DNA from: an uncultured Thiotrichaceae bacterium
GTDB taxonomy: Bacteria > Pseudomonadota > Gammaproteobacteria > SZUA-229
Length of the DNA stretch: 64,000 bases
Direction: 5' to 3'
Assembly: GCA_964600755.1 (NCBI GenBank)
Contig: CAZRKQ010000039.1
Location: 421-64,420, forward strand
Below, piece after piece: positions 1,044 through 25,478 of the stretch (positions are counted from its first letter, which is position 1; the number at the start of each line of letters is the position of its first letter). The notes under the pieces were generated by a model that saw nothing but the letters and a program-made list of their open reading frames with translations, was not told where the DNA came from and ran no database searches. The translations under genes and the position numbers were made by a program.

Positions 1044-1063
1044 CAAGTGGCCTCATACATATT

Positions 1064-1154
1064 CTATTACCGGTCATTCCCGCGGAAGCGGGAATCTGGT
1101 CTGCCAGCATTTAACAAGATTCAAGCTATAGATTTCCGCTTCCGCGGGAATGAC
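1064..1154. repeat. Two inverted copies of a 24-bp hairpin element (REP-like) in hoxY-hoxH spacer
   Basis: tcattcccgcggaagcgggaatc (1064-1086) and gatttccgcttccgcgggaatgacg (1130-1154) are reverse complements; each contains an 8-bp stem attcccgc/gcgggaat around a GGAA loop. Confidence 0.5.
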
Positions 1155-1188
1155 GTTTGTGGTGTGTTTACAATTTACCTGACTCTGC

Positions 1189-1728: not shown

Positions 1729-1730
1729 GT

Positions 1731-2459
1731 TTACAGTTCCTCGTCCTGTTCGTGGGCGGCAACATCACCGACAACGCTGATTGGTTGCCTGTCATACAGG
1801 CGTTCACCGATGGGTTTGTCGTATCCCTGGTGCTTGGGCAGGATGGCGCCAACCGGGCAGACATGTGCTGCCTTGTCAGTCGCAGCAAAGCTGCTGTCAC
1901 CGAGTTTGCCGCTGGCTGAATTGATCACCAGGCGACTGTTGATGCTGCGGCCGTCGATGGCAAACACATTTTTATGATCAACGTCCCGACTGGCGCGTAC
2001 ACACAGTTCGCACAGGATACAGCGGTTAAAATCTATCACTGTATCTGCATGCGATGCATCCACACTTCTCTGTGGAAAAAAGTGCGTGAAATGCGGTGAC
2101 AACATGTTGGTGTAATAGGCAACAGCCTGCAACTGGCAGGCACCGCTTTTTTCACAGCCCGGGCACACATGGTTACCTTCGACAAACAACATTTGCAATA
2201 ACGCGCGTCGATCACTTATGATTTCATCTGAAGAGTTATCGACTTCGATATTTTCCATCGCCGGTTGCGTACAGGCTGAAACCTGTCTGCCATCGATATC
2301 AACGACACAGACGCGACAGCTGCCATGTGGGGTGAATTCGGGGTTATGACACAGGTGCGGAATATATTCTCCTGACCTTAATGCCGCATCCATAATGGTA
2401 TCGCCATCCTCAAAAGCAATGGTCTTGCCATCCAGTTTGAATGTCTTGTTACCACTCAT
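1731..2459 (-). CDS. hoxU: NAD-reducing hydrogenase diaphorase subunit HoxU (NuoG N-terminal-like 2Fe-2S/4Fe-4S protein)
   Basis: 242 aa; 2Fe-2S ferredoxin N-terminus (CHNPEFTPHGSCRVCVVDIDG) plus 4Fe-4S Cys clusters (CPGCEKSGACQLQ, CILCELCVRASR); 4-bp overlap with hoxF stop. Confidence 0.8.
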   Translation of the reverse strand: MSGNKTFKLDGKTIAFEDGDTIMDAALRSGEYIPHLCHNPEFTPHGSCRVCVVDIDGRQVSACTQPAMENIEVDNSSDEIISDRRALLQMLFVEGNHVCPGCEKSGACQLQAVAYYTNMLSPHFTHFFPQRSVDASHADTVIDFNRCILCELCVRASRDVDHKNVFAIDGRSINSRLVINSASGKLGDSSFAATDKAAHVCPVGAILPKHQGYDKPIGERLYDRQPISVVGDVAAHEQDEEL

Positions 2460-4412: not shown

Positions 4413-4437
4413 TGTTGATCAGGATCAATCTTGATCC
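4413..4437. promoter_or_regulatory. FNR/CRP-family binding-site candidate upstream of hoxF
   Basis: TTGATcaggATCAA at 4415-4428 matches TTGAT-N4-ATCAA consensus exactly, overlapping a second half-site arrangement ATCAAtcTTGAT (4424-4435); ~175 bp upstream of hoxF start codon on the coding strand side. Confidence 0.4.
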
Positions 4438-4548: not shown

Positions 4549-6204
<1,656 letters not shown>

Positions 6205-6270: not shown

Positions 6271-6397
6271 TTCACCGCAGAGGCGCAGAGGCGCTGAGAA
6301 AGAAATTGGGTTTTGTTTTGCGACTGACACATCATTGCAGTGAGCAAAGAAGAAGTTATAGAAGAAGTTACTGTCTTAACAATATTCCTCTGCGTCT
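6271..6397. repeat. MITE-like repeat, copy 1 (TIR ttcACCGCAGAGGCGCAGAGGCGC ... CCTCTGCGTCTCTGCGGTgaa)
   Basis: Terminal inverted repeats with internal tandem GCAGAGGC GCAGAGGC; left subterminal region ctgagaaagaaattgggttttgttttgcg shared with copies 2 and 6. Confidence 0.6.
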
Positions 6398-6429
6398 CTG
6401 CGGTGAAACATGTGTTTGTCTACGTTTAT

Positions 6430-6876
6430 TCAGTTGTCCTGCAGCACGCGTTCGTCGTATTCCGATTCGAAGAACAGCTTGTGCTTGGCTTCTTCCTTGG
6501 CTAGACCGACGAAGACTTCCTTCAGGTTGCTCTCGGGGATTTTTGCAGCCATGTCGCTGTAAAGTTCGAAGGCGGCGCGTTCTTTTTTCATGGCGACGAT
6601 CAGTGCATCCTGGTAGGAAATATCGTCGCTGGCATCGACTTCAACAAGATAGTCGGAAATTTTCAGGTCCAGTACTTCCTGTTCCGGTGTCAGTTCGCGA
6701 TCGCCGGTTTTTACTGCGAGCAAACGTTCCTTGTGGCGTTTCTCTTCTTCGGCAAATTCAAGCAGCAGTTGTTTCATGCCGGCTTTTTCAGCCCGCCCGG
6801 CAAGGTTTGCATAGAAGTCAGCCGCCTGCTGTTCCTGGTCAATTGCGTAATCAAGTATTTCATCAATGGTATTCAT
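6430..6876 (-). CDS. Rubrerythrin-family diiron protein (ferritin-like, no rubredoxin domain)
   Basis: 148 aa; two ExxH diiron motifs (EFAEEEKRH, LAKEEAKH) in four-helix-bundle spacing. Confidence 0.65.
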   Translation of the reverse strand: MNTIDEILDYAIDQEQQAADFYANLAGRAEKAGMKQLLLEFAEEEKRHKERLLAVKTGDRELTPEQEVLDLKISDYLVEVDASDDISYQDALIVAMKKERAAFELYSDMAAKIPESNLKEVFVGLAKEEAKHKLFFESEYDERVLQDN

Positions 6877-6897
6877 CGGTGTTCATCCCCCTGGTCT

Positions 6898-8709
6898 TTA
6901 TCTACCTGCTTGTGAATCGCTGTTAGTGTATGCGTCCGGGTTGAGGAAACGGTCAATGCCGCGCGCCGCGTGGTGGCCATCTTCGATTGCGCTGATGGCG
7001 TCGGCGATACGGTTGGCAACGTCGCCGCCAACAAAGATTTTTTGCAACGGCGTGTGCTGGTACTCACCCGGAGAAAACTTGCCCCATTCGATTGCAAGCT
7101 GTTCCTGTATCTCTTTGGAAAGAAAGTCGAGATCGCTGCCCTGGCCAATGGCCGAGATGATGCTGTCATAGCTTTGTTCATGCATGCGATCTTCCTGCAG
7201 CACCGGGCGCGGGCGGCCGCCTTTCGGGTCCTGCACCATTTCTGCCTCACCCCACTTGATCGTGACCTGGCTGGAATCCGCTGCGTTGACGATCTCGACC
7301 GGGATTGCCTGCGGTACGATGCTGCAGCCCTCTTCCTGTGACTCGTGGATTTCTTCAGTGTCTGCCGGCATATCGGCGATGCGGCGACGGTAGAGTATAG
7401 TGACATCCGCACCGAGGCGTCGTGAGACACGCGCGGCATCCATGGCGACATTGCCCCCGCCGATCACGGCGACTTTGTGGCCGATACCAGGATCGCGCCC
7501 GCTGGCGACATCGGCGAGTACCTGCAAACCTGACAGCACGCGCGGGTGGTCTTCACCCTGAATGCGCATGCTGGACGGTACCGACAGGCCAGTGGAGAGG
7601 AACACGGCATCGTAGTCCTGCAACAGTATCTCGAAGCTGATGTCTTTGCCAACCTGCGTGTTGTAATTCATGTCGACACCCAGTGAGACAATGTATTCAA
7701 TGTCCTTGTCAAGATCGGCATCCGGCAGGCGATAGCTTGGTACACCGTAGCGCAGCATGCCGCCGGCAGTTTTCTGTGCTTCAAAAACAGTCACAGCATG
7801 GCCTTGCTTGCGCAGGTAATAGGCAGCGCTGAGGCCGCCGGGACCGGCGCCGATGATGGCGACCTTGTGGCCGCTTTCATTAATCTCATCATTAAGTATG
7901 CGCCTGTAGTCATTTGCGTCGACCTGGTCGACGATAAAGCGTTTCAGCCAGCGGATTGCGACTGGCTCACCGAGGATGCCGACCGGGCATACGGATTCAC
8001 ACCTGCGAGTACAGATGCGGCCGCAGGTCGCCGGGAACGGATTGGTACGGTACATCAGCTGCAGGCCTTTTTCGTAGTCACCATCGCGGATGCTGTGGAT
8101 GTAGTCAGGAACATCCATGTGTGCCGGACAGGTGGCAACACAGATGCCGCACTCCACGCAGCGGTCGGCTTCTTTCTTTGCCTGCTCGATGCTGTAGCCT
8201 TTAGCGACTTCATCAAACGACTGTACGCTATCCTCCGGCGACAGCATCTCCATTTCGATGCGTTTGGGCGGGTAAAGGTGATAGTCATCCGCACGGCGGT
8301 AGCCATGCTCATTGTCCTGCCAGGGCTTGTCATCCACGCCCGCGGTGAAATGGAACTCGTCCGGGTCTTCGGTAAACCAGGCGTATTCATTGCTCATGCG
8401 CAACGAGGCTGCAGTACAGATGTCCACGCACAGGCCGCACCAGCAGCAGCGGCCATAATCGAAGCGCGGACGCAGGCCGCTGTCACCCGGGCGGCCTTCA
8501 AATTCTTCCACCGCTACCATATCGATGGCGTGGTTCTGGCAGATCGTGTGGCAACTGCCACAACCGATGCATTTTTCTGTAACGTTAATATGAAATCCGC
8601 GATAAGCCGGCGCGCCGGGCCGGTCGATGGTCGGGCGCATCGAGGTGTAGGGTTTCTCGAAGGCGCGCTGCCAGACAAAGAAGGGCGATAACAGGTCTCT
8701 TAAATTCAT
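6898..8709 (-). CDS. Fusion protein: NuoI/MbxN-like 2x[4Fe-4S] ferredoxin domain + additional 2x[4Fe-4S] + GltD/SudA-like FAD/NAD(P)H-binding oxidoreductase
   Basis: 603 aa; N-terminus CIGCGSCHTICQNHAI...CCWCGLCVDICTAASL (NuoI-type CxxCxxCxxxC pairs); second pair CVECGICVATCPAH / CGRICTRRCESVCPVG; then VAIIGAGPGGLSAAYYL and KVAVIGGGNVAMDAA dinucleotide-binding motifs typical of glutamate synthase small-subunit family. Confidence 0.7.
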   Translation of the reverse strand: MNLRDLLSPFFVWQRAFEKPYTSMRPTIDRPGAPAYRGFHINVTEKCIGCGSCHTICQNHAIDMVAVEEFEGRPGDSGLRPRFDYGRCCWCGLCVDICTAASLRMSNEYAWFTEDPDEFHFTAGVDDKPWQDNEHGYRRADDYHLYPPKRIEMEMLSPEDSVQSFDEVAKGYSIEQAKKEADRCVECGICVATCPAHMDVPDYIHSIRDGDYEKGLQLMYRTNPFPATCGRICTRRCESVCPVGILGEPVAIRWLKRFIVDQVDANDYRRILNDEINESGHKVAIIGAGPGGLSAAYYLRKQGHAVTVFEAQKTAGGMLRYGVPSYRLPDADLDKDIEYIVSLGVDMNYNTQVGKDISFEILLQDYDAVFLSTGLSVPSSMRIQGEDHPRVLSGLQVLADVASGRDPGIGHKVAVIGGGNVAMDAARVSRRLGADVTILYRRRIADMPADTEEIHESQEEGCSIVPQAIPVEIVNAADSSQVTIKWGEAEMVQDPKGGRPRPVLQEDRMHEQSYDSIISAIGQGSDLDFLSKEIQEQLAIEWGKFSPGEYQHTPLQKIFVGGDVANRIADAISAIEDGHHAARGIDRFLNPDAYTNSDSQAGR

Positions 8710-8747
8710 TGCATGACTCGTCTGAATACTGTGTTTGAAAAAACTAT

Positions 8748-8881
8748 TTCACCGCAGAGGCGCAGAGGCACTGAGAAAGATGTTGGTTTTTGTATTGCGG
8801 CCGACAGAACAGAGCAGCAAACAGATGTGAAATTACAATCGTATATAGCATTTCTCTGCGTCTCTGCGCCTCTGCGGTTAA
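8748..8881. repeat. MITE-like repeat, copy 2 (sits in the gap between NuoD-like gene and NuoI-GltD fusion gene)
   Basis: ttcACCGCAGAGGCGCAGAGGCAC ... CTCTGCGTCTCTGCGCCTCTGCGGTtaa; subterminal ctgagaaagatgttggtttttgtattgcgg homologous to copy 1. Confidence 0.6.
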
Positions 8882-8893
8882 TCATTTCATTCA

Positions 8894-10063
8894 TTAGCGT
8901 TCGATCTCCGGTGGATAGGTATGCAGCGATACCATCAGGCCGGCGATATCGGCGATGTTGGTGCCGCGCGCCAGGCGTTCCATCACGGCGATGGCGTGGG
9001 TGTAGCTGGGGCCGCGCACGTGTACGCGTCGTACATACTCGGTACCATCAGACACCATGTAGTAAGCGTACTCACCGCGGGTACACTCCGCCTTGACGTA
9101 GGTTTCGCCGGTCGGGATTTTCCAGTGCAGCACGTTGGGCATGTCTGCCTGGAACGGGCCGTCAGTCGGGGTATGGTCGAGGCACTGGCGGATCAGGCTG
9201 ATGCTCTGGCGGGTCTCCTGCAATCGACAGTAGGCGCGGCCGTAGGCATCGGACTCGTTGCCGCTGACAATATCGAAATCGAGCTGGTCATAGGCCAGGT
9301 AGGGCTCGTCCTTGCGCAGGTCGCGGGCGAAGCCGCAGGCGCGTGCATTGGGGCCGACAATGCCGTAGGGGTCGATCATGTCCGGCGTGATGATGCCAAG
9401 GCCTTTTGAGCGTGCCTTGAACACCGCGTTGTTGAACATCACGCGCTCGACCTGGTCGAGCAGCTTTTCGGCACCATCCATAATTTCACGTGCGCGTTGC
9501 TCGAATCCGTCCGGCAGACCGGCACGAACGCCGCCGGGCACGATATACATGTGGTAGATGCGGGCACCGGTCATTTCCTCGAACAGGTCAAGCACGTAGT
9601 CGCGATAGGCCAGGGTCCAGTTGGGCACAGTGTACTGGCCGAAAGCGCTGGCGAGACCACCTATCCACATCAGGAAGCTGGCGAGACGCATCAGCTCCAG
9701 GTTCATGGTGCGCAGCCAGACCGCGCGTTCCGGTACCTCGATGCCGCTGAGTTCCTCGACCGCGGCGGAGTACAGGTACTCGTTGAAAGTCGGTTCGGGT
9801 ACCGCGATGCGGCACACCACGGTGAAGTTCTGGATGTAGGTGCGCCTTTCCATCAGCTTTTCGAAACCACGGTGCAGGTAACCAACATGGGTCTTGCACT
9901 CGATAATAGTGTCACCGTCCAGCACCAGTTCCAGCGACATGTTGCCGGTTATGCCCGGGTGTTGTGGGCCTTGCCACAGCTTGACGTATTTACCCGAAGA
10001 CAGGTCAACCGGTTCGGGTTGCGGGAAATCCAGCGAGGCGGAATGGCCGGTTGACTGCGTCAT
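8894..10063 (-). CDS. NuoD / group-4 [NiFe] hydrogenase large-subunit homolog lacking Ni-binding cysteines (MbxL/Ehr-like)
   Basis: 389 aa; GPQHPG signature near N-terminus; no N-terminal RxCGxC and no C-terminal DPCxxC motifs (C-terminus ...GLMVSLHTYPPEIER); 4-bp overlap with upstream NuoC-like gene. Confidence 0.75.
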   Translation of the reverse strand: MTQSTGHSASLDFPQPEPVDLSSGKYVKLWQGPQHPGITGNMSLELVLDGDTIIECKTHVGYLHRGFEKLMERRTYIQNFTVVCRIAVPEPTFNEYLYSAAVEELSGIEVPERAVWLRTMNLELMRLASFLMWIGGLASAFGQYTVPNWTLAYRDYVLDLFEEMTGARIYHMYIVPGGVRAGLPDGFEQRAREIMDGAEKLLDQVERVMFNNAVFKARSKGLGIITPDMIDPYGIVGPNARACGFARDLRKDEPYLAYDQLDFDIVSGNESDAYGRAYCRLQETRQSISLIRQCLDHTPTDGPFQADMPNVLHWKIPTGETYVKAECTRGEYAYYMVSDGTEYVRRVHVRGPSYTHAIAVMERLARGTNIADIAGLMVSLHTYPPEIER

Positions 10064-10602
10064 TGTTCATCGCCTCCTCGGTTCGGGTACAGGTTTACTT
10101 TCATGTGTTCACGCGGCTCTTCACTGGAACGGCCCTCGCGGTGGCCGAAGCGTTCCTCGCTGAATTTCTTGGTATCGAACTCACGCCGCATCGGCGGGAT
10201 CTGGTCCCAGCCTTCCAGTACAAAATCCTCGTCCTGACGCGGGCTGCCAGGAAAGCGGATACCGTACGCCTCGCGCAGTTCACGCTGGTAGGTCCAGGCC
10301 TGGGCCCACAGGTGATGGATGGATACCATGTCTTCGCCATCGCGGCCGATATCAACATGAATGCTCAAGCTGTCTTTCCTGTCGTAGTTGTGCAGCATGT
10401 ATACCACGGTGAAGAGGCTGTCCTCGATGTAGTCGATGACGGTCATGAAATTGAGGTGCGTGTAACCTTCGCGGTCGCGCAATTCGCGGATCAGCGTCTC
10501 GGTCTTGTCTTTCGCCACTTTCAGTGTGGTCAGGCCGGGCTTAAGCTCGGTGATGTTGGTAACACCGAATTCGCGTTCCAGTCTTTCAAACATTGCACTC
10601 AT
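10060..10602 (-). CDS. NuoC (30 kDa subunit)-like protein (MbxK-like)
   Basis: 180 aa; position and size between NuoB- and NuoD-like genes; NuoC-type fold sequence features. Confidence 0.6.
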   Translation of the reverse strand: MSAMFERLEREFGVTNITELKPGLTTLKVAKDKTETLIRELRDREGYTHLNFMTVIDYIEDSLFTVVYMLHNYDRKDSLSIHVDIGRDGEDMVSIHHLWAQAWTYQRELREAYGIRFPGSPRQDEDFVLEGWDQIPPMRREFDTKKFSEERFGHREGRSSEEPREHMKVNLYPNRGGDEQ

Positions 10603-10622
10603 ATTTGTTCAGCCGTTGTTTG

Positions 10623-11255
10623 TTACCAGTTGTAATCGGGCATGTCCCAGTTTTTTATGACCTTCTTCTGGTTGGCCTTGTACCAGTCGAAGTTTTCGAC
10701 GTAACGGTTGGCACCATCGCAACGGCCCTGCTTGATTTTCTTCTGCAGTTCCATGATACCGGCCACCAGCACTTCCGGTCGCGGCATGCAACCGGTGATG
10801 TAGAGGTCAACCGGAATATACTGGTCGAACTGGTTAATGGTGTTGTAGCTGTCGAAATACATGCCGCCGTTGACCGGGCATATGCCGAGCGCAATCACAA
10901 ACTTGGGTCCCTGCATCTGTTCATAACTGCGAATGATGCGTTTCAGGGTTTTGACCGAGGCATAGCCACCGATGACGAACACCGATGACTGCCGCGGCGT
11001 CGGCCGCCCGGCGACGCCGAAACGGTTGGCATCGAAGCGCGCCGTCATCAACGGTCGCAACTCGATGGCGCCGCAACCGGTACCAAAGGCCAGTACCCAC
11101 AATGAATTCGCGCGCGCCCAGTTGGCGAAATCTTCCACCGCCTTGATCGGGTATGGCTCGTAGGCTTTGGGCCGAGCGTTACTGAACAACTGCTGTTCTT
11201 CTGCGGTCAGCCCGGCATTTTCCAGGGTGTCTTCTGTACTCAGACTTTTAATCAT
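10623..11255 (-). CDS. NuoB / hydrogenase small-subunit-like protein (MbxJ-like), only 3 of 4 cluster cysteines
   Basis: 210 aa; motifs FGTGCGAIE (single Cys where NuoB has CC), LGICPVNGG, TGCMPRPE. Confidence 0.75.
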   Translation of the reverse strand: MIKSLSTEDTLENAGLTAEEQQLFSNARPKAYEPYPIKAVEDFANWARANSLWVLAFGTGCGAIELRPLMTARFDANRFGVAGRPTPRQSSVFVIGGYASVKTLKRIIRSYEQMQGPKFVIALGICPVNGGMYFDSYNTINQFDQYIPVDLYITGCMPRPEVLVAGIMELQKKIKQGRCDGANRYVENFDWYKANQKKVIKNWDMPDYNW

Positions 11256-11266
11256 CTCGGGCCCTC

Positions 11267-12193
11267 TCAGGAAGTCAGCACCATCTGTGCGTATACAATT
11301 GACATTATCCCGATTAGGGTCGGGATTTTAAAGAAGAATCGAATCGCCTGGTCAACGCGAAAACGCGGGAAGGCGACACCGATAACGATTGCGACCATGT
11401 AGATCAGCCAGGTCTTGATCATCAGTTCGACCCAGCCCGTGGCGCCGCCAAAGAACAGGTTCATAAACAGCACCAGCTTGGTCGCACCGAACAGGGCGCG
11501 GTTTGTCTGCAACAGCGACAAATAAGCGCTGTGGAACTCCGTTGGCGGGCCGATGGGGATTTCCTGTGGCGCAAGAAAAACGTCGAACGGCGAGTAGCCG
11601 GTCATGCCGAGCAGGGCCAGCATCGCGGCCAGTGTCGCGACCCAGTTGGTGAACACGGTCCAGTTTTCCCAGCCACCCTGTTGCGCGGCGACGATCTCGG
11701 TGATCGACAGGGTATCGTACTGGATCACGATGGATATCACCGCCAGTGCAAACGGCACTTCGTAGGCGGTCATTTGCGATAAGCCGCGCGCAATTCCGAT
11801 GGCCGCGTAGGGGTGACCGCTTTCACCGGCACCCAGTGCCATACCGAGCTGGCCGAAGAACATGAAGTAGATCACCAGGAACAGGTCGCCGGCCATGCTG
11901 AAATTGGAGAAGGTGTCACTGCCATAGATCACCGGTATGAAAGCCAGGGTGCCGATGCCACCGGCGATGCGGAATACGGGGCCGAGGTAGAACATGATGC
12001 CGTGGCTGACGGCGGTGCGCTTGAACAGGTTTTTCAGGATGTTGATGAACGGTTGCGAATAGGGGATGCCGATGCGGCCCTGAACCTTGGCGATAATCCG
12101 CTCGATGAACGCGCCCACCAGCAGGCCGTAGCCCGTTACAATCAGCAGCGTGAGCGAAAAGTTACCGACTTTACCCAGCCATTCGACGATCAC
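11267..12193 (-). CDS. NuoH / HycD / MbxM-like membrane subunit
   Basis: 308 aa polytopic membrane protein with NuoH-family conserved loop segments (GRIGIPYSQPF..., PFDVFLAPQE). Confidence 0.7.
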   Translation of the reverse strand: MIVEWLGKVGNFSLTLLIVTGYGLLVGAFIERIIAKVQGRIGIPYSQPFINILKNLFKRTAVSHGIMFYLGPVFRIAGGIGTLAFIPVIYGSDTFSNFSMAGDLFLVIYFMFFGQLGMALGAGESGHPYAAIGIARGLSQMTAYEVPFALAVISIVIQYDTLSITEIVAAQQGGWENWTVFTNWVATLAAMLALLGMTGYSPFDVFLAPQEIPIGPPTEFHSAYLSLLQTNRALFGATKLVLFMNLFFGGATGWVELMIKTWLIYMVAIVIGVAFPRFRVDQAIRFFFKIPTLIGIMSIVYAQMVLTS

Positions 12194-15100
12194 TATCCGA
12201 GCCCTCCATTCACCAGCACCATGGCAACAAAAAACATCAGGATGAACAACGCGTAGGTCTGGCCGTTACCGTTGTAGAAAATCCGCAGTGATGAAGCCAG
12301 CGTGTGGCTCCATTCGGCAGCGGCGTTCCAGAAGGCAGTGGCGCGTGGTTTTACCAGGAAGCCGATGGCACGATCGTAGTGGGCGAAGAAGTGATAGGCA
12401 TAATGCGTATCTTCCGGACGGTGCGGACGCTCGGCGGCATAAACGATGTTGAACTGTTCGACTTTCTGGATTTTCAGGGTCAGCGATATCAACAGCAATA
12501 AAATCAGCGGCACCATCCAGACGCCGCCGACTATGGCCATGATCATCGGCGCATTCCAGTAACCATACTGTGTCTGCAAGGCAAAGCCTTCCCATACGAG
12601 TGCACCACCGAGCCACGGCGCAACTGCAGCAGACAGTGGATCGAGCAGCAGTTTCGGGTAAGCCGAGATCACCATGATGGCGGCGATCATGACGAACTGC
12701 GGCGCCAGCAGAATGGCCGGTGCTTCGCGCAGCCTGGCGTGTTCGAGTTTGCGCTGACCGAGGAACACGGTCTGCAGCAGGCGGAACATATAAAGGAAAG
12801 CCACGGCGCTGGAAAAGAACGCGAGGGCGGCGATCCAGTACCAGCCTTTCTCCATCAGGGCATTGAACAGCATCCATTTACCGCCGAAGCCGGTTAGCGG
12901 CGGTACACCGGACATGGCAATAATCGCAATCATGGTGAACACGAAAGTAAACGGCATGTTCTTGATCAGGCCACCCATCCTGTACATCATGCGTTCGTTG
13001 GTACGCAGTATGATGCCGGCGATGCTGAGAAAGAGGATGCCTTTGAACAGAAAATGGTTGACGGTCATGTACAGCGCCGACACCCAGCCAAGGTGGCTCA
13101 TCAGTGCGATGCCGGTAACAATATAACCCAGTTGCCCCATGCTGGAGTAGGCGACCAGGCGCTTGATGTCTTCCTGGAACACGGCCATCAATGCACCAAA
13201 GGTAGCGGTAAGGATACCGATCCAGCCGAGCACGTAGGCCGGATCGAGGCCGATGTCTGAACGAATGCCAAGCTGTGCTGCAATTAGTATAAGCCCGAAG
13301 ATACCGGCCTTGCTGACCACGGCAGAGAGTATCGCGGTAAAGTCATCGTCGGCTTCGGCGTAAGCGGCGGGCAGCCAGACGTGCACGCCAAAGCCACCCA
13401 TCTTGATGACAAAGCCGGCCGCGAGCAGGCTGAAGACGAGGCCGATGGAATCACCGCTGTTGCCGAGGTCCGACAGCAGCAGGCTACCGCTTGCAGCATA
13501 GGCGACCGCAAAACCGGCGAGGATGAAGTACGCCGAAGCGAGTGAGAACAGCAGGTAATTGAGCGCAGGTTTAACGCCCTCACGTCCCAGCGTAACCAGC
13601 AGGTAGGAACTCAGTGTCATCAGTTCCCAGCTGAAGAAAAACTCAAGTGACGTCTTCGCGCGTAACAGCGCAGCGAGTGACAGCAGCAGTACCGCGAGCA
13701 AGGGATAAAATCCCTTGCGGTCACCAGTGCGGTACATTGAAGCAATACTTACCAACAGGCCGCCACCAACCAGTAGATAGCTGAACAGCTGGTTTAAACC
13801 CTCGAGATCATTCGTCAACCAGAGGCCGCCCATACCAACAAAGACCAGCATTGGCAGACCCTTGAGGCGTGCGCAAAGACTGTCGATCAGCCACAGCATC
13901 AAGCCAGCAAGCAGCGGCAGGAACATGCCCGGGATATCGATACTCATTGTCATTGCCATGCCAGAGCCGATAGCGAACAACAGCAATACTGCAATAGCGA
14001 CCGGGGCCTGTTGCCAGAAACTGACGGCTGCCTCAGTCTGTGTTTCAGCCGTGCTGCTTTCATCTTGATGGCGTGCATAGCTGAACCAGCGGAACAGGTA
14101 GGCGGCTTCCAGCAGCGAGCCGATCAGTATCACGGCGATCCAGCCGTACTGCCCGCCACCGGCCAGCAGCATGACCAGCTCCCATTTTGCCCAGAAACCC
14201 GGGAACGGCGGCAGGCCGATCAGCGCAGCCATCATGATGCCGAGCAACAACAACAGGCCGGGGCGCCCGGCGATCGCGGACCAGTCTTTTATGTTCGAAC
14301 GATCAACCATGCCTGCAAGCCAGAACAGCCCAGCCTTGGCCAGCAGGTGGTTGATGAATAAACCACCGACGACGAGAGCCAGTTGTGATGAGGCATCCAG
14401 CTGTTGCAGCAGCGCTATTGCCAGCGTGAGCAGGCCCATCTGGCCAATGGATGAATAACCGAGCAGGCGCCTGGCATTGTCCTGCTTCAGGCCGATGATG
14501 TTGGAAAACAGGAAGGTGGCACCACCGACCAGTGCAATACTGGTCAGGTAATCGCTCATTAACGGCAGCAGTTTATAAAGCGCGAAAAACACACCGGCTG
14601 AAACGCCGACGGATATCAGGGAAGCGATGCCAGTGGGCGCCGTTTCGTACACATCCAGGCCCCAGCCGTTGGCGGGGTATGGCTTGAGTTCGATCAGCAG
14701 GCTGGTGAGCACGAACAGGGTTGCGATCAAACCGATGGGCCCGGTGATCAGTTCACGCTGTGCAATGATGTCGTCGATGTTCAGCGTGCCCGTCTGATAG
14801 TAGATGAAGATGGTGCCGAGCAGGTAGAATGCCGTTGCAACCGAAGTTGCAATGATGTACTTGAAACCGGCGGCCAGGACATTACCGGTGCGCTCCATGC
14901 CGATAAGGGCATAGGTTGCGATCGAGGTGATCTCGATGAAGATGAACAGGTTAAACAGGTCGCGGGTCATTATCATGCCGTTGATACCCATCACCATAAT
15001 CAGGTAAAGCAGCAGCGCCGAGGCATGCTGTTTCAGTGAAGGCAGGAAGTGCCATGCTGCCAGCAATGCAACGGTGTTCACTGCCAGCACAAAGCCACCT

Positions 15101-15363
15101 TCGAACAGGCCGAAGCGCAGGTTGATCGAAAACGGTGGTGCGACACCGGCAGTTTCGATATCGATAGCCGGTGCGCCGTTGACGATGGTTAGCAGGTTAA
15201 GTGCCGCGATTGCCACCATGGCGGCAAGTGCCATAAGAAATACCAGGATAGCCGAGCCACGATGTGCGCGGTCGAACAGCGGTACCAGGAAACCTGCACC
15301 CAGAGCGATGACATAGATGCCCAGTGGATGCAGCAGCACGTCTGTCAGAAATGTATTTACCAT
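12193..15363 (-). CDS. Fused tandem MrpD/NuoN-like antiporter subunits (MbxH-H' equivalent in one polypeptide)
   Basis: ORF 12193..15378 (1061 aa); two separate NuoL/M/N-family cores each with the SS(I/M)GQ(M/L)G signature (LLGYSSIGQMGLL and LVAYSSMGQLGYI); start likely MVNTF at 15363. Confidence 0.7.
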   Translation of the reverse strand: MVNTFLTDVLLHPLGIYVIALGAGFLVPLFDRAHRGSAILVFLMALAAMVAIAALNLLTIVNGAPAIDIETAGVAPPFSINLRFGLFEGGFVLAVNTVALLAAWHFLPSLKQHASALLLYLIMVMGINGMIMTRDLFNLFIFIEITSIATYALIGMERTGNVLAAGFKYIIATSVATAFYLLGTIFIYYQTGTLNIDDIIAQRELITGPIGLIATLFVLTSLLIELKPYPANGWGLDVYETAPTGIASLISVGVSAGVFFALYKLLPLMSDYLTSIALVGGATFLFSNIIGLKQDNARRLLGYSSIGQMGLLTLAIALLQQLDASSQLALVVGGLFINHLLAKAGLFWLAGMVDRSNIKDWSAIAGRPGLLLLLGIMMAALIGLPPFPGFWAKWELVMLLAGGGQYGWIAVILIGSLLEAAYLFRWFSYARHQDESSTAETQTEAAVSFWQQAPVAIAVLLLFAIGSGMAMTMSIDIPGMFLPLLAGLMLWLIDSLCARLKGLPMLVFVGMGGLWLTNDLEGLNQLFSYLLVGGGLLVSIASMYRTGDRKGFYPLLAVLLLSLAALLRAKTSLEFFFSWELMTLSSYLLVTLGREGVKPALNYLLFSLASAYFILAGFAVAYAASGSLLLSDLGNSGDSIGLVFSLLAAGFVIKMGGFGVHVWLPAAYAEADDDFTAILSAVVSKAGIFGLILIAAQLGIRSDIGLDPAYVLGWIGILTATFGALMAVFQEDIKRLVAYSSMGQLGYIVTGIALMSHLGWVSALYMTVNHFLFKGILFLSIAGIILRTNERMMYRMGGLIKNMPFTFVFTMIAIIAMSGVPPLTGFGGKWMLFNALMEKGWYWIAALAFFSSAVAFLYMFRLLQTVFLGQRKLEHARLREAPAILLAPQFVMIAAIMVISAYPKLLLDPLSAAVAPWLGGALVWEGFALQTQYGYWNAPMIMAIVGGVWMVPLILLLLISLTLKIQKVEQFNIVYAAERPHRPEDTHYAYHFFAHYDRAIGFLVKPRATAFWNAAAEWSHTLASSLRIFYNGNGQTYALFILMFFVAMVLVNGGLG

Positions 15364-15737
15364 TTCGACTCCGTGCACTCGTCAATCATCAGGGTCTTGC
15401 GTGCTTTATATATGCGTACTGCATATGACAGCATTACCGCGGTAACGCCGAGACCGATCACGATAGCGGTCAGCACCAGTGCTGATGGCACCGGGTCGAC
15501 CACGCGGTTGGCGGCTTCGGCCATGGGCACAGCATCATTGATGATCGGTGCCGTGCCGCCGGTAACGTAACCGATGGAAACCATGACCATGTGGATGCCG
15601 GTATCTGTCAGTGAGAAGCCGATGATCATGCGGATCATGTTGCGCTGCGTGAGCATGCCCCACAGGCCGACCAGCACCAGGCCAAGGCCGCTGCAAAGCA
15701 CAATCAGGGAAATCGGCAGGTCCGCGAGCAAACTCAT
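15357..15737 (-). CDS. MrpC / NuoK-like small membrane subunit
   Basis: 126 aa; LTQRNMIRMIIGFSLTDTGIHMVMVSIGY matches MrpC/NuoK RN(L/M)I(K/R)..IG.E pattern; 3 TM helices. Confidence 0.6.
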   Translation of the reverse strand: MSLLADLPISLIVLCSGLGLVLVGLWGMLTQRNMIRMIIGFSLTDTGIHMVMVSIGYVTGGTAPIINDAVPMAEAANRVVDPVPSALVLTAIVIGLGVTAVMLSYAVRIYKARKTLMIDECTESKW

Positions 15738-16474
15738 AACGGTCCGGTGTCCTCCTTGCGGAAGCGGTCGAGTACGGCGCTGAGCTCGAAACCGACCTTG
15801 AGGCCGACGAAAATATAGATCAGGGGTATAGCACCGGCGCTGAACAACGAGCCATAGCTGCCGAGGCCCATGATACGGTTGTCGAGGAAGCCCCCGGCCA
15901 GGAGCACGCCGAGTACGCCGACAACGACATAGCTGAAACCCGACAGTGATTCGATGATGGCGATCATCGTGCGGCTGATGTGTGATTCGGGCAATGCCAG
16001 CAACAGGAACATGGTGCCGGATGCGATGATCGCGCCACCCTGGAAGCCACCCCCGGGTGACAGGTGGCCATTGAGGAACACGTAGACGCCGAACAGGATC
16101 ACCATCGGCAGCAGCAGTTCAGTCGCAGTCTCGACGATCTCGCTGGCCGGCTTGTGCACACCCGCGGTTTCTTCCGCGCGGTCGCCCTGTTCAAGGTCTT
16201 CATCATCTTGCTTGCGACGGGTGCGGCGCAGCAGCAGGCCGACACCAGCGGCGGATATGAACAGTACGGTGACTTCACCCAGGGTGTCGAGACCGCGGTA
16301 GGTTACGACCACGGCAGTAACCAGGTTAGGTGCACCGAGTTCCTGCGGGCCATTTGCAGCGTAGTAATGACCGAGTTTGGACAACTCCGTGTTCTCGACG
16401 TAGTTCGAGGCGAGGTTGAAAAACACCATCGCCATCAGAAACAGCATCAGGAAGATGAAGATGCGTTTGATCAT
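15734..16474 (-). CDS. MrpB / MnhB-like membrane subunit
   Basis: 246 aa; NLVTAVVVTYRGLDTLGEV hallmark of MnhB/MrpA C-terminal domain. Confidence 0.65.
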   Translation of the reverse strand: MIKRIFIFLMLFLMAMVFFNLASNYVENTELSKLGHYYAANGPQELGAPNLVTAVVVTYRGLDTLGEVTVLFISAAGVGLLLRRTRRKQDDEDLEQGDRAEETAGVHKPASEIVETATELLLPMVILFGVYVFLNGHLSPGGGFQGGAIIASGTMFLLLALPESHISRTMIAIIESLSGFSYVVVGVLGVLLAGGFLDNRIMGLGSYGSLFSAGAIPLIYIFVGLKVGFELSAVLDRFRKEDTGPL

Positions 16475-16824
16475 TCAGCCTGCTCCTTTGCCTTTTCATC
16501 CTCATTACCGAGCTGGTCGATCACGGTTGTTTCGGTTTCACGGGTGCCAATGGTATGCGCCGCGCGTGCCAGCGCGTGCGATGACACCGGGTTGGTCAGC
16601 ATCACGAAGAAGATCAGGATGATGAGTTTCAGCGTCCATGTCGGATGCAGGAAAGCAATACCGATGAGGATCATGATGGTGCCGAGCGTGGTGGCCTTGG
16701 TGCCGGTCTGGATGCGGTTATAGGTGTCCGGCATGCGCAGCACACCCAGACCGGCCGAGAACAGGAACAGCGCACCGATGAGCAGGAACAGGTTACCGAC
16801 GATGTCAGCATAAAAATCGAACAT
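16471..16824 (-). CDS. MrpG / MnhG-like subunit
   Basis: Internal start MFDFYADIVGN... of ORF 16471..17169; GVLRMPDTYNRIQTGTKATTLG matches MnhG RLPDxYTRLHAxTKxxTLG; upstream part of the long ORF overlaps the neighbouring gene and reads as low-complexity. Confidence 0.6.
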   Translation of the reverse strand: MFDFYADIVGNLFLLIGALFLFSAGLGVLRMPDTYNRIQTGTKATTLGTIMILIGIAFLHPTWTLKLIILIFFVMLTNPVSSHALARAAHTIGTRETETTVIDQLGNEDEKAKEQAE

Positions 16825-16829
16825 GCCGC

Positions 16830-17081
16830 TCAGTCCCCGCCCTGCGTTTTGCGTATCGCGTAAAGAAAAATCATCGTGGTCAAACCCGAGCCGATCGAGG
16901 CTTCGGTCATGGCCACATCCGGTGCTGCCAGTACCACGTAGACCACGGACGCAAACAGGCTGGCGAGCCCCGCGCTGATGACAGCACTGAGCATGTTGTT
17001 GATTGTTACCGCCAGCAACCCGCTGATGAGGATGCCGGCGCAGAGCACGATAGTCAGCAGTGTTATTACAGGTATGGACAT
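16830..17081 (-). CDS. DUF4040 (MbhD / MrpA C-terminal-domain-like) small membrane protein
   Basis: 83 aa; LAAPDVAMTEASIGSGL matches the APDVAxTEAAVGAG motif of DUF4040. Confidence 0.5.
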   Translation of the reverse strand: MSIPVITLLTIVLCAGILISGLLAVTINNMLSAVISAGLASLFASVVYVVLAAPDVAMTEASIGSGLTTMIFLYAIRKTQGGD

Positions 17082-17089
17082 GACGTGAA

Positions 17090-17365
17090 TCAGATACCTT
17101 TTTCCAGGTAGCGGGCAACAGCCAGCACGCCGAGGAAGCTGAGCAGGCCATAGACCAGTGCCACGTCAAGGTAGATGAAGCGTTCCGCCTGGTGCGCGAG
17201 CAAGGCTATCAGCGCGATAGTGACGATCGTCAGCAGGTCGATCGCGACCACGCGATCGACCGTATCGGGACCGATCACGAGGCGGACGATACCGAAGACG
17301 ATGCTGAAAAAAATCAGCAGCGCTGAAATGATGATGGTGATTTCAGTCATGCCGGCTTCAGCCAT
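17090..17365 (-). CDS. MrpF / MnhF-like subunit
   Basis: 91 aa; VIGPDTVDRVVAIDLLTIV matches MnhF GPxxxDR(V/I)xAxD motif. Confidence 0.6.
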   Translation of the reverse strand: MAEAGMTEITIIISALLIFFSIVFGIVRLVIGPDTVDRVVAIDLLTIVTIALIALLAHQAERFIYLDVALVYGLLSFLGVLAVARYLEKGI

Positions 17366-17888
17366 AGATCACCTTCAGCAGTTTTTCGAAGCGGGCGGAG
17401 ATCTCTTCAGTAGCCGCCACCGGGTCAGTCGCGCTGACATTGATCCAGTGGATGAACAGGGAATCGTCTTTTATATCAACCACCAGAGTGCCCGGCGTCA
17501 ATGTGATGGAGTTGGCCAGGGCCAGACGGCCGATAGGGGATTTCAGCCTGGTCTTGATCTCGACAATACCGGGCTCGATATCGATACGAGGCGAGAACAC
17601 CAGTCGCATCACGTTAAGGTTGGCTTTTGTCAGTTCGATGAAAAACACACCCAGGTACACCAGGTAGTAGAAGAGCACTTTCGGTGACCAGCGAATGACA
17701 CTGTAGACCCGGGCGAAGGAAGCGAAAGCCAGCGCGATGGCAGCCGAGATTACAATACCTGCTAACAATGTGTCGTATGCAAGCGTGCCGTTGGCGATTA
17801 CCCAGATGAGCATCAGCGTCAGCCAGAGGTTGAGGAACTGCAGTGTTATATTTGTTGTTTTTTGCATCGGCAGCGAGTCTACTCTCAT
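17358..17888 (-). CDS. MrpE / MnhE-like subunit
   Basis: 176 aa; C-terminal-half hallmark LANSITLTPGTL of MnhE family. Confidence 0.65.
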   Translation of the reverse strand: MRVDSLPMQKTTNITLQFLNLWLTLMLIWVIANGTLAYDTLLAGIVISAAIALAFASFARVYSVIRWSPKVLFYYLVYLGVFFIELTKANLNVMRLVFSPRIDIEPGIVEIKTRLKSPIGRLALANSITLTPGTLVVDIKDDSLFIHWINVSATDPVAATEEISARFEKLLKVIYG

Positions 17889-17943
17889 GGCAGATTAAAT
17901 GAAATAATCTGCAAGGCATCTATAGTGTAAACACGCCATATTG

Positions 17944-18288
17944 TTAGCCCATAACCAAGGTTTCTATGACTTTATTGACCTGCATCAAATATATTTCTGC
18001 CCGCAGGACGACTGCAGCCTGAACTGATTGGCCATGAACGCATATCCAGCTTGCACCACAATAAATCGTGATGGTCCAATCGAGTGCAGAAACGCATGTC
18101 ACTGCCATCAAAAAAGCCCTTTCAGTATCAAATACAAGACCTGTGCCAATTATTTCTGAACTGAAAAACCACGAGGCATCAGTTACAACTGATGTGAATA
18201 ACTCTCTATCACCAGGTGTCATATCTTTGTAACAATTGAACAATGACATCCTGTAATATTCAGGGACGAAAAAGTAAATAGCGATCAT
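17944..18288 (-). CDS. Hypothetical protein upstream of the Mrp-Nuo operon
   Basis: 114-aa ORF, lower GC, no recognisable motif; may be spurious. Confidence 0.25.
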   Translation of the reverse strand: MIAIYFFVPEYYRMSLFNCYKDMTPGDRELFTSVVTDASWFFSSEIIGTGLVFDTERAFLMAVTCVSALDWTITIYCGASWICVHGQSVQAAVVLRAEIYLMQVNKVIETLVMG

Positions 18289-18404
18289 AGCCGTCTTTTT
18301 CTGTTACTGGGTTCATCTTGAATAAAATAAGACTGAATGAAAATGGCGTCATCTTCTTAGAGAGTAACTCCTGCATAGCAATCAACAACTGAGAACTAGG
18401 AATA

Positions 18405-19856
18405 ATGGAAAAGGCAGATATTGGTTTGATTGGACTGGCGGTAATGGGGCAGAACCTGGTTCTGAACATGGCCGACCATGGTTATCGTGTTGCAGTGTTC
18501 AACCGTACCAGCAGCAAGGTGGATGAGTTTATCAACGGGCCGGCAAAAGATAAAAATATCATCGGTACGTACGACCTGGCAGAGCTGGTGGCTGCACTGG
18601 AGAAACCGCGTAAGGTCATGTTGATGGTCAAGGCGGGCGAGGTAGTTGACCGGTTCATTGATCTGCTGTTGCATTTGCTCGAGCCGGGCGATGTCATTAT
18701 CGATGGCGGTAACTCATACTACCCGGACACCACACGACGCACTGCCTACCTTAGAGAAAACGATTTACGCTTTATCGGTACCGGTATTTCCGGCGGCGAA
18801 GAGGGTGCACGCCATGGGCCATCCATAATGCCGGGCGGCGACCCCGAGGCATGGCCGCTGGTAAAGGATATCTTCCAGTCAATTGCCGCAAAAGTCGATG
18901 GCGAGCCTTGCTGCCAGTGGGTCGGGCAGGATGGTGCCGGCCATTTCGTGAAGATGGTGCATAACGGTATCGAATACGGTGACATGCAACTGATCTGTGA
19001 AGCCTATGCGTTGATGGAGCATGCCCTGGGCATGGATTGCGAGCGCATGCATGAGGTATTCAAGCAATGGAACGCCGGCGTGCTGGATTCGTACCTGATC
19101 GAAATCACCGCCGATATACTCGCCATGAAAGATGAGGATGGCGAGCCGCTGCTCAATAAAATACTCGATACGGCGGGGCAGAAGGGCACCGGCAAGTGGA
19201 CCGGCATCAATGCCCTCGACCTCGGTGTGCCGCTGACCCTGATTGGCGAGGCCGTGTTTGCGCGCGTGCTGTCATCGTTAAAAGATGAACGCGTCCACGC
19301 GTCCGCCATCCTCGGGCCGCGCCCGGACCCTGTAGTCTCAGGCAGCGAGGAAGACAACATCATGGCCTTGCATGATGCCCTGTATGCTTCGAAAGTCATT
19401 TCCTATGCGCAGGGTTTCATGCTCATGCGCGAAGCGGCAAGGGAACAGGGCTGGGACCTCAACTATGGAGAAATTGCGTTGATGTGGCGCGGCGGCTGCA
19501 TCATCCGCAGCGCCTTCCTCGGTAATATCAAGACCGCCTACGATACCAATCCGCAACTGGAAAACCTGGCACTGGACACGTTTTTTGTCGATGCGCTCAA
19601 AGCGGCAGAAGCTGGCTGGCGCAAAGCCGTGACGCTGGCTGTAGCGAATGGCATTCCAGCACCCGCATTTGCCTCAGCCTTGTCGTACTTTGACGGCTAC
19701 CGCAGTGAACGTCTGCCCGCAAACCTGCTACAGGCCCAGCGCGACTACTTTGGCGCACATACTTATGAACGCGTTGACCGACCACGCGGTGAATTTTTCC
19801 ATACCGACTGGACCGGCAGCGGCGGCAAGGTTGCATCAACAACATACGATGTGTAA
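18405..19856 (+). CDS. gnd: 6-phosphogluconate dehydrogenase, decarboxylating
   Basis: 483 aa; GLIGLAVMGQNLVLNMADHG NADP-binding N-terminus and full-length Gnd architecture. Confidence 0.9.
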   Translation: MEKADIGLIGLAVMGQNLVLNMADHGYRVAVFNRTSSKVDEFINGPAKDKNIIGTYDLAELVAALEKPRKVMLMVKAGEVVDRFIDLLLHLLEPGDVIIDGGNSYYPDTTRRTAYLRENDLRFIGTGISGGEEGARHGPSIMPGGDPEAWPLVKDIFQSIAAKVDGEPCCQWVGQDGAGHFVKMVHNGIEYGDMQLICEAYALMEHALGMDCERMHEVFKQWNAGVLDSYLIEITADILAMKDEDGEPLLNKILDTAGQKGTGKWTGINALDLGVPLTLIGEAVFARVLSSLKDERVHASAILGPRPDPVVSGSEEDNIMALHDALYASKVISYAQGFMLMREAAREQGWDLNYGEIALMWRGGCIIRSAFLGNIKTAYDTNPQLENLALDTFFVDALKAAEAGWRKAVTLAVANGIPAPAFASALSYFDGYRSERLPANLLQAQRDYFGAHTYERVDRPRGEFFHTDWTGSGGKVASTTYDV

Positions 19857-19898: not shown

Positions 19899-20147
19899 TT
19901 TAACCGCAGAGGCGCGGAGAATTATTATTCTAATTTCAGGAGCGGCTTTAGCCGCGAATACCTTGCTGATAGTCTATCACGGGCACTGAAGATGCCATCA
20001 TTCTTTTAATATTTATTACATCGTTCGCGTTTTTCGTGGACACACATTCTTATTAAACTTCTGGCGCAGTAGCCAGAGTGTTCGCGACTCAAGTCGCTTC
20101 TACGTTTACCAGTAACCAACTCTGCGCCTCCGCGCCTCTGCGGTTAA
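19899..20147. repeat. MITE-like repeat, copy 3 (longest, ~249 bp)
   Basis: ttAACCGCAGAGGCGCGGAGA ... TCTGCGCCTCCGCGCCTCTGCGGTTaa flanking a unique core; immediately downstream of gnd. Confidence 0.6.
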
Positions 20148-24102: not shown

Positions 24103-24292
24103 GCTATTCCGTCTTAAACGTATCGTTTAATTATCAGTTAATTGTACTTACATATTAAGCATACCGAATAAAAGGGGAGGAGGGTTTAAATAATGTCTAA
24201 TTTCACATAATGCTTGAATATTAATCCATCCGTTCACTTTATTATCCTGTTCTATATGAATAAACTGACGGAATAACACAAGGAGAATACAC

Positions 24293-24646: not shown

Positions 24647-24818
24647 TACTAAAATAACTAATTTACATATAAAGATATTTAGTTACCATATTTAGAAATT
24701 GGATATATAGATGAATAAATTATTACTACTTTTAGAAACGTCCCATACTTAAAGTTAGCCGCTAAGCGTATTTCCTAATTGATGCCAAAAGGCACACATC
24801 TATGCTATCCTTTCCCAC

Positions 24819-25428: not shown

Positions 25429-25478
25429 TTTTTATAAGAGTGTATTAAATTTTTTTAAGCAATAATGAGGGAAAAACG

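Follow-up and report, generated by a model that had tools for sequence, protein, structure and literature searches.

A bacterial MBS/Mbx-type operon with a NuoI::NfnB/GltD fusion subunit, a candidate NADPH:sulfane-sulfur oxidoreductase

Gene content and layout of the operon

What kind of complex is encoded by an operon that unites Mrp-type membrane genes with homologs of complex I subunits in an uncultured Thiotrichaceae bacterium? We analyzed a stretch of 64,000 nt from this organism (assembly GCA_964600755.1, contig CAZRKQ010000039.1, positions 421–64,420 of the forward strand; hereafter the window), assigning genes by Pfam profile matches and structural relatives by best Protein Data Bank (PDB) matches, with the Pyrococcus furiosus sulfane reductase MBS (6U8Y) as reference. 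Relatives came from a scan of one genome per species, which returned 51 loci encoding a relative of the fusion protein described below. On the minus strand of the window, from 17888 to 6430, lie 13 consecutive genes, each with a Pfam match: seven Mrp-type membrane genes, homologs of NuoH, NuoB, NuoC, and NuoD, a 603-residue NuoI::NfnB/GltD fusion, and a rubrerythrin-like gene. Its sequence places the encoded complex, whose architecture has already been described, as a bacterial representative in the MBS/Mbx branch of the complex I superfamily.

The membrane arm comes first. An mrpE/mbsA-like gene (MnhE; 17358..17888; Pfam MNHE 2e-39) opens the operon here and in 40+ loci, followed by mrpF/mbsB-like (17090..17365; MrpF_PhaF 3e-18), mbhD/mbsD-like (DUF4040; 16830..17081; MbhD 3e-19), and mrpG/mbsC-like genes (16471..16824, with its start at the ATG at 16824; PhaG_MnhG_YufB 5e-26). 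Next are an mrpB/mbsE-like gene with MbhE and MnhB domains (15734..16474; MnhB 4e-22, MbhE 5e-10), an mrpC/nuoK/mbsG-like gene (15357..15737; Oxidored_q2 7e-23), and a fused mbsH-mbsH' gene (12193..15378). The 1,061-residue product of the latter has two Proton_antipo_M domains, and its residues 24–323 match 6u8y_H (2e-54) while residues 470–1054 match 6u8y_X, i.e., MbsH' (1e-60). The nuoH/mbsM-like membrane anchor (11267..12193; NADHdh 5e-48) leads into nuoB/mbsJ-like (10623..11255), nuoC/mbsK-like (10060..10602; Complex1_30kDa 1e-21), and nuoD/mbsL-like genes (8894..10063; 389 residues). The fusion gene (6898..8709; Fer4_7, Fer4_20, and Pyr_redox_2) and the rubrerythrin-like gene (6430..6876; 148 residues; Rubrerythrin 5e-13) close the operon. 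Twelve genes thus encode the complex itself, with Mrp-type genes (A–G), two MrpD-like pump subunits, and NuoH/B/C/D/I homologs united in one operon according to Pfam; genes for a NuoE/F/G input module or a NuoA/J/L/M/N arm were not found by Pfam within 6430–17888. The single NuoE/F-like gene nearby (2456–4240) belongs to a Hox hydrogenase cluster.

The initial annotation had read this region as a 13-gene operon of the MBS/Mbx type, and that reading held: the genes lie where it placed them, and the top PDB hit of every tested subunit (NuoD, NuoB, NuoH, the two MrpD domains, and the NuoI domain) is a chain of 6U8Y, by 20–30 orders of magnitude. It had described overlapping or abutting stops and starts; adjacent genes overlap by as much as 22 nt or stand no more than 21 nt apart, except nuoD and the fusion gene, between which 184 bp intervene. 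Gene order is kept in 40+ loci. Two features of the layout vary across the family: mbhD precedes mrpG in the window and follows it in Thermosipho, Cloacimonadota, and Melioribacteraceae, and H and H' form a single gene in every locus from Gammaproteobacteria and Cloacimonadota but are two genes in Thermosipho.

How does this operon relate to systems already described? The initial annotation did not recognize the architecture as that of a known complex, a view that does not survive comparison with the literature. An mbx-like operon of Thermotogae and proteobacteria, with a gltD-related flavoprotein at the NuoI position, was described from genomes in 2015 (Degli Esposti, PMC4758237), the Thermotoga MBX is discussed in several papers, and the NCBIfam model PRK13984 covers the fusion protein. 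The "13-subunit MBX" of Thermotoga maritima has been discussed as a putative sulfur reductase, and its first gene (mbxA) is up 4.4-fold on S0 (PMC9431562); the Mesotoga Mbx is drawn in the literature as a ferredoxin:NADP+ oxidoreductase; and the archaeal Mbx was later shown to be a sulfane reductase, MBS (PMC7684303). An exhaustive search of 50%-identity representatives returned about a dozen full-length fusion clusters, including Thermosipho melanesiensis ABR31076 at 45% identity. The gammaproteobacterial version is widespread, with >120 protein clusters at ≥78% identity and 51 species-level genomes.

With P. furiosus MBS the operon shares the subunit set, a nearly identical gene order, and an Mrp-type Na+/H+ module with two antiporter-like pumps. 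It differs in the fusion of MbsH to MbsH', in the swapped order of mbhD and mrpG, in the added rubrerythrin-like gene, and in its host, a mesophilic bacterium. The Thermosipho locus (L052) shares the NuoI::GltD-type fusion as the last gene of the complex—45% identical to that of the window over its full length—and the rubrerythrin-like tail, whereas it has separate H and H' genes and the archaeal mrpG-mbhD order. The window operon has the gltD-related flavoprotein at the NuoI position and the rubrerythrin at the operon end that mark the mbx-like type. Specific to its lineage are the joining of H to H', the exchanged places of mbhD and mrpG, the missing vestigial cysteines, a repeat insertion, and a linkage to pentose-phosphate genes.

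The NuoB, NuoD, and NuoH homologs

To which branch of the superfamily does the catalytic core belong? The NuoD homolog matches 6u8y_L at 1.5e-95, compared with about 1e-66 for complex I, 1e-37 for Mbh, and 2e-30 for FHL; its placement is based on comparative bit scores. The NuoB homolog matches 6u8y_J at 5e-63 vs. 2e-38 for complex I and 3e-24 for Mbh, and the top PDB hit of the NuoH homolog is 6u8y_M at 7e-41 vs. 4e-16 for NDH-1. The operon shares with complex I/NDH-1 the NuoB/C/D/H/I/K and antiporter-like homologs and the coupling principle, but it has an Mrp-type membrane arm and lacks NuoEFG. With group 4 [NiFe] hydrogenases (Mbh, Ech, and FHL) it shares common ancestry and a modular layout, at much lower similarity.

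The initial annotation had called the NuoD homolog cysteine-free and excluded a hydrogenase because it has none of the four NiFe-ligating cysteines. The protein contains six cysteines (56, 84, 243, 279, 294, and 327), so the label is loose, but none of them stands at any of the four NiFe-ligand positions. The cysteines of the L1 (RxCGxC) and L2 (DPCxxC) motifs of group 4 hydrogenases are replaced: RIC reads RIA87, followed by E90, and DNC reads HTY383, followed by E386. In the alignment to 6u8y_L, A87 occupies the position of C85 and Y383 that of C385. We also checked whether a sequencing error might hide CxxC ligands. It does not: C84, A87, E90, Y383, and E386 recur in 37 related genomes, and because these independent genomes carry identical residues, the missing ligands mark a trait fixed in the clade rather than an error. 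Since all NiFe ligands are gone, the predicted operon product cannot be a hydrogenase.

The NuoB homolog aligns without gaps to 6u8y_J, and its TGCG, GxCP, and GCMPRPE motifs are conserved. It keeps C61, C126, and C156, the counterparts of MbsJ C28, C93, and C123, and has Gly (G58) at the position of C25; 42 loci show the resulting G-C-C-C pattern without variation. In MBS, the proximal [4Fe-4S] cluster is ligated by only these three cysteines of MbsJ, and its free iron has been proposed as the site of polysulfide reduction (PMC7684303). The NuoB homolog is accordingly predicted to carry, as in MBS, a proximal [4Fe-4S] cluster held by three cysteines on a shortened loop.

Three further cysteines, C25 of MbsJ plus C85 and C385 of MbsL, were found by mutagenesis to be dispensable in MBS (PMC7684303), and exactly these three are missing in 37 gammaproteobacterial genomes. 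For the mbx-like operon, NuoD has been described as typically keeping vestiges of the first and third NiFe cysteines, which is not presented as a functional requirement (PMC4758237). The equivalents of MbsL C85 and C385 are retained in Thermosipho, Cloacimonadota, and Melioribacteraceae, whereas the window and 37 gammaproteobacterial loci have A87 and Y383 instead; the MbsJ C25 equivalent is kept in Thermosipho, which thus has all three vestigial cysteines, and is Gly in Cloacimonadota and Melioribacteraceae. As far as aligned residues can tell, the natural pattern of cysteine loss agrees with the MBS mutagenesis.

Could the complex nevertheless reduce quinone? The main alternative to a sulfane-sulfur acceptor is an ion-pumping NADPH:quinone oxidoreductase, an NADPH-specific analogue of complex I that would feed NADPH from the pentose-phosphate pathway into the quinone pool of a (micro)aerobic gammaproteobacterium. 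Gammaproteobacteria have quinones, so the hosts presumably do as well; the reaction would be strongly exergonic; and the linkage to zwf and gnd described below suits NADPH oxidation. The NuoD homolog also scores 412 bits against NCBIfam NF004739 ("NADH-quinone oxidoreductase subunit D"), above the cut-off of 360. However, the residues that hold the quinone head group in complex I are gone: in the alignment to 2fug_4, His38 is replaced by Thr39 and Tyr87 by Val88 (Thermus thermophilus Nqo4 numbering), as in MBS. The tandem-Cys motif of cluster N2 is likewise absent from the NuoB homolog, which reads GTGCG where complex I has ACCA and is left with three ligands. The tested subunits are much closer to MBS than to complex I/NDH-1, the same architecture occurs in Thermotogae, for which a published paper reports no quinones, and an FNR-type box upstream of the operon suggests expression at low oxygen. 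We therefore consider quinone reduction unlikely, though worth keeping in view.

The fusion protein and the electron-input module

What delivers electrons to this core? The initial annotation had proposed that a protein fused to an NAD(P)H flavoprotein takes the place of MbsN/NuoI, and the domain matches bear it out. The N-terminus of the 603-residue protein is a NuoI/MbsN-type domain with two [4Fe-4S] clusters (CxxCxxCxxxC motifs at Cys 47–57 and 88–98), and residues 6–115 match the MbsN chain 6u8y_N (5e-18). A second 2x[4Fe-4S] domain of the Fer4_20 type follows (Cys 184–194 and 229–241; Pfam 1.5e-29), and then a Pyr_redox_2 domain (7e-29). Both Rossmann motifs are intact: GAGPGG for flavin adenine dinucleotide (FAD) and GGGNVA for NAD(P)H. 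Residues 150–600 match T. maritima NfnB (4ylf_B, 1e-83) and related NADPH modules better than GltD (2e-49). Over residues 3–591, the protein scores 685 bits against NCBIfam NF010590/PRK13984 ("putative oxidoreductase," 611 positions), below the equivalog cut-off of 946. According to Pfam, the operon holds no second NuoI gene.

The module resembles NfnB and GltD/SudA/DPD-type NADPH flavoproteins in its Fer4_20 domain, which holds two [4Fe-4S] clusters, and in its Rossmann folds for FAD and NAD(P)H. It differs from them in being fused to a complex I–type subunit, so that its clusters are presumably wired into a membrane complex and not into a ferredoxin or synthase partner. It differs as well from archaeal MBS, in which ferredoxin passes its electrons to an unfused 2x[4Fe-4S] MbsN subunit. 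An Arg-rich "LYRRR" stretch follows the second Rossmann strand; the nucleotide-site motif reads "LYRRRIAD" in the window and "SLERTYEE" in Thermosipho. This stretch and the zwf/gnd neighbors are the reasons for which we favor NADPH over NADH as the donor.

Database names suggest a more ordinary role. Homologs are listed as "glutamate synthase (NADPH/NADH) small chain" (JGI) or "FAD-dependent oxidoreductase" (NCBI), and the 184-bp gap sets the window gene apart from nuoD, as might be expected if it encoded either the small subunit of an ordinary glutamate synthase or an independent FAD oxidoreductase and merely adjoined an Mrp/Nuo cluster. This explanation is refuted by synteny. Wherever a related locus includes upstream DNA, the fusion gene comes directly after nuoD, usually at a spacing of 8–20 bp, across 47% to 94% identity and five phyla. 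The N-terminus is an MbsN/NuoI domain in an operon without another NuoI gene; no gltB was found in the flanks of the window or among the 51 loci; and neither an NfnA nor a GltB partner is encoded near the fusion gene. The ratio of nonsynonymous to synonymous substitution rates (dN/dS) of 0.05–0.07 indicates strong purifying selection on the fusion gene in the very lineage that carries the gap. The check for a separate unit thus came down on the side of operon membership, through synteny, the dN/dS values, and the origin of the gap in a repeat element (see below); we give the glutamate synthase reading practically no credence.

The gap exists because a repeat element has inserted there. A palindromic repeat resembling repetitive extragenic palindromes or miniature inverted-repeat transposable elements (REP/MITE-like), recognized from its intergenic copies and its folding, occupies 8752..8877 between nuoD and the fusion gene. 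Its terminal inverted repeats start CCGCAGAGGCGCAGAG, and its termini are composed of GCGCAGAG-type octamers. The family has six copies in the window (6275–6403, 8752–8877, 19904–20143, 52422–52552, 57378–57554, and 61615–61791), all intergenic and 126–240 bp long, only the second of which lies within the operon; there are 17 pattern matches, vs. 0.04 expected. Only the window and the loci most closely related to it (L001, L034, and L038) have a gap of ~200 bp, compared with 8–20 bp elsewhere, and the gap of L001 holds the same repeat element. The operon copy folds to −60 kcal/mol (z = −4.0), with a T-run 9 nt from the hairpin. A scan for intrinsic terminators within the operon found sites at the number expected from shuffled sequence and none at the nuoD/fusion gap; partial termination of transcription at the repeat hairpin may occur. 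Two open reading frames (ORFs), one of 62 residues (8706–8894) overlying the repeat element and one of 114 residues (17944–18288) overlying the promoter region, gave no Pfam hit and were rejected as spurious.

Does the fused flavoprotein receive electrons or deliver them? In the original Mbx model, a ferredoxin:NAD(P)+ oxidoreductase, reduced ferredoxin would be oxidized and the fused flavoprotein would reduce NAD(P)+ with Rnf-like ion pumping. In its favor, NfnB-type modules exchange electrons with ferredoxin in Nfn. It is also the published interpretation of the mbx-like operon (Degli Esposti 2015, PMC4758237) and of the Mesotoga Mbx. Yet the archaeal Mbx has since turned out to be a sulfane reductase, and the ferredoxin-docking subunit is here itself occupied by the fusion. 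Coupling in complex I–type enzymes takes place at the NuoB/NuoD/NuoH substrate site, which a path from ferredoxin to FAD at the tip of the peripheral arm would presumably bypass, and the strictly conserved three-Cys open cluster would be left without a role. We rate this model as rather improbable.

The rubrerythrin-like gene reported by the initial annotation was recovered at the expected place, starting 21 bp after the fusion gene. It encodes a ferritin-fold diiron protein with two ExxH motifs (residues 45 and 129) and no rubredoxin domain, and it is only distantly related to solved ferritin-like proteins. The gene follows the fusion gene in gammaproteobacterial loci and in Thermosipho, with the exception of a Methylococcales locus (L036) where it lies upstream, and it is missing from the loci of Cloacimonadota, Melioribacteraceae, and Spirochaetia. 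Most simply, its product is an accessory protectant. Another arrangement, in which the NfnB-type FAD would bifurcate electrons and the diiron protein would form the high-potential branch, was considered and set aside.

Proposed function, neighborhood, and regulation

What reaction would such a complex catalyze? Our preferred reading, held at somewhat less than even confidence, is an anaerobically induced, ion-translocating NADPH:sulfane-sulfur oxidoreductase. Several observations argue for it: the tested subunits resemble MBS (6U8Y) far more than they resemble complex I or Mbh; the NuoB homolog keeps the three-Cys pattern, invariant in 42 loci; the three cysteines dispensable in MBS are the ones lost; both the quinone ligands and the tandem cysteines of N2 are absent; Thermotogae have the same operon; the FAD and NAD(P)H motifs of the fusion protein are intact and the "LYRRR" stretch is present; pentose-phosphate genes lie nearby; and FNR-type boxes stand upstream of the operon and of the Hox genes. 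For polysulfide/dimethyltrisulfide reduction coupled to ion translocation, S0-induced mbxA in T. maritima is the sole indirect support. NADPH—probably supplied as Zwf and Gnd oxidize glucose-6-phosphate while storage carbohydrate is broken down under anoxia—would reduce the FAD of the fusion protein, and single electrons would then pass through its four [4Fe-4S] clusters to the proximal cluster on the NuoB/MbsJ homolog. This three-Cys cluster with one free iron, as in P. furiosus MBS, would reduce polysulfide or persulfide rather than quinone or protons, at the interface of the NuoB, NuoD, and NuoH homologs. Reduction of sulfane sulfur would drive H+ or Na+ translocation through the Mrp arm, the diiron rubrerythrin-like accessory would shield the oxygen-sensitive open cluster, and expression would occur at low oxygen, probably through an FNR-type regulator.

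Several points weigh against this proposal. Under standard conditions, NADPH and polysulfide are only roughly 60 mV apart, a small driving force that makes ion-pump coupling marginal unless cellular ratios help. We know of no established cytoplasm-facing polysulfide pool in mesophilic Gammaproteobacteria, and neither the window nor the flanks of the 51 loci show sulfur-metabolism genes linked to the operon. The preference for NADPH over NADH is read from a motif, neighbors that produce NADPH would also fit NADPH homeostasis in either direction, and the putative FNR and sigma-54 sites are consensus matches. A literature search found no biochemical characterization of any bacterial member, whether of activity, donor, or acceptor.

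Because the redox span between NADPH and polysulfide is small, the reaction should be reversible; it may run near equilibrium, and reversal is possible. An ion gradient could then drive electrons from sulfide or polysulfide uphill to NADP+, providing NADPH for carbon fixation in sulfur-oxidizing chemolithoautotrophs. Many of the carrier genomes are indeed labeled Chromatiaceae, Ectothiorhodospiraceae, Thiogranum, or Thiotrichales, and the operon clusters with other enzymes that supply NADPH. Against this stand the FNR-type box, pgm, and the Hox hydrogenase, which point to anoxic catabolism and not autotrophy, the lack of linked sulfur-oxidation genes, and the presence of the family in fermentative Thermotogae, Cloacimonadota, and Spirochaetia. 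The reverse direction, too, seems rather improbable to us.

For NADPH-driven sulfane-sulfur reduction, a wider picture is conceivable, which we offer with more reserve than the enzymatic assignment itself. In sediment Gammaproteobacteria, many of them labeled as sulfur-oxidizer lineages, the complex may be an NADPH-specific, ion-pumping sulfane-sulfur reductase, perhaps reversible as a sulfide:NADP+ oxidoreductase, that lets the cells respire intracellular polysulfide or persulfide without oxygen, using NADPH formed by Zwf and Gnd from stored carbohydrate. If true, it would connect the pentose-phosphate pathway to sulfur reduction in an energy-conserving and previously unmeasured way, and the anaerobic physiology of abundant sediment bacteria would come to include a sulfur reductase that is driven by NADPH and conserves energy. 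The loss of the nonligand cysteines in this clade would independently confirm the Fe-S cluster itself as the catalyst, and the complex would be a further intermediate between Mrp-hydrogenases and complex I. The proposal predicts NADPH:polysulfide activity and induction by anoxia. Bacterial Mbx-like complexes have been known from genomes for years, and the gammaproteobacterial clade offers a tractable route to the function of the bacterial MBX, as its mesophilic version may express more easily than those of hyperthermophiles.

What do the neighboring genes encode? In the window, the operon is flanked by a conserved, divergently transcribed gnd (6-phosphogluconate dehydrogenase; 18405..19856, plus strand; Pfam 6PGD 9e-131) and a conserved downstream pgm (phosphoglucomutase; 4549..6183, minus strand; Pfam PGM domains); pgm lies downstream of the rubrerythrin-like gene in 12 loci. 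Among the loci with >3 kb of flank, gnd, zwf, tal, or pgm occurs in the sampled flank of 23/40, a count that is indicative and not a probability, as only ~1 kb upstream was sampled and the loci are phylogenetically related. At least five arrangements occur: one, seen in the window, has a divergent gnd upstream and pgm downstream; a second has zwf directly upstream; two have tal-zwf-gnd or zwf-gnd downstream; and another combines gnd upstream with zwf downstream. Such neighbors recur in L014, L025, L027, L028, L029, L031, L037, and L048, in addition to the flanks of the window. Examples of spacing are 38 bp (tal) and 52 bp (zwf) downstream of the rubrerythrin-like gene and 350–470 bp (zwf) upstream of mrpE. 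Together with the Hox genes and the FNR-type boxes, the pgm and gnd/zwf neighbors suggest that the complex takes part in breaking down storage carbohydrate under anoxia.

How might the operon be regulated? An FNR/CRP-family box, TTGATGCAGGTCAA, lies 100 bp upstream of the mrpE ATG (17975..17988, minus strand; a consensus match). The window contains three distinct sites of this type (five strand matches), vs. 0.4 matches expected. Across 36 related loci and the window, a box stands 79–143 bp upstream in 12 of the 37 sequences, with a background of 0.04 per 400 bp. A sigma-54-like motif, TGGCAC-N5-TTGT, is located ~260 bp upstream of mrpE (18134..18148, minus strand); it is a consensus match only, and it forms a conserved block in the gnd–mrpE intergenic alignment, found in the window and five related loci. 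A TGCAC-N27-GTGCA palindrome is conserved in the mrpE leader. The gnd/mrpE intergenic region as a whole (17889–18404 in the window) has conserved blocks in common with L001, L004, L010, L013, L033, L034, and L035. Thermosipho differs from the gammaproteobacterial loci, with their FNR-type box and pentose-phosphate neighbors, in having a divergent Rex-like regulator (Put_DNA-bind_N plus CoA_binding; positions 475–1104 of the T. melanesiensis locus L052) directly upstream of the mbx-like operon.

Genes for an NAD-reducing [NiFe] hydrogenase occupy 1–4240 of the window on the minus strand: a fused HoxE/F (2456–4240), HoxU (1731–2459), HoxY (1189–1728), and the start of HoxH, which is cut off by the end of the window. 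These genes are preceded, at a distance of 175 bp, by a perfect FNR-type palindrome, TTGATCAGGATCAA (4415–4428). Farther from the operon, two low-GC stretches (24001–26000 and 28001–32000; 0.38–0.40, vs. about 0.50) contain only short ORFs and a GST gene and may be acquired. Two long ORFs, of 694 residues (61914–63998, minus strand) and 394 residues (53449–54633, plus strand), have no Pfam match at E ≤ 1e-5. At 22102–24102, on the minus strand, a gene encodes a 666-residue protein that joins a CLP1-type P-loop (polynucleotide kinase–like) N-terminus to an RNase Z/metallo-beta-lactamase C-terminus.

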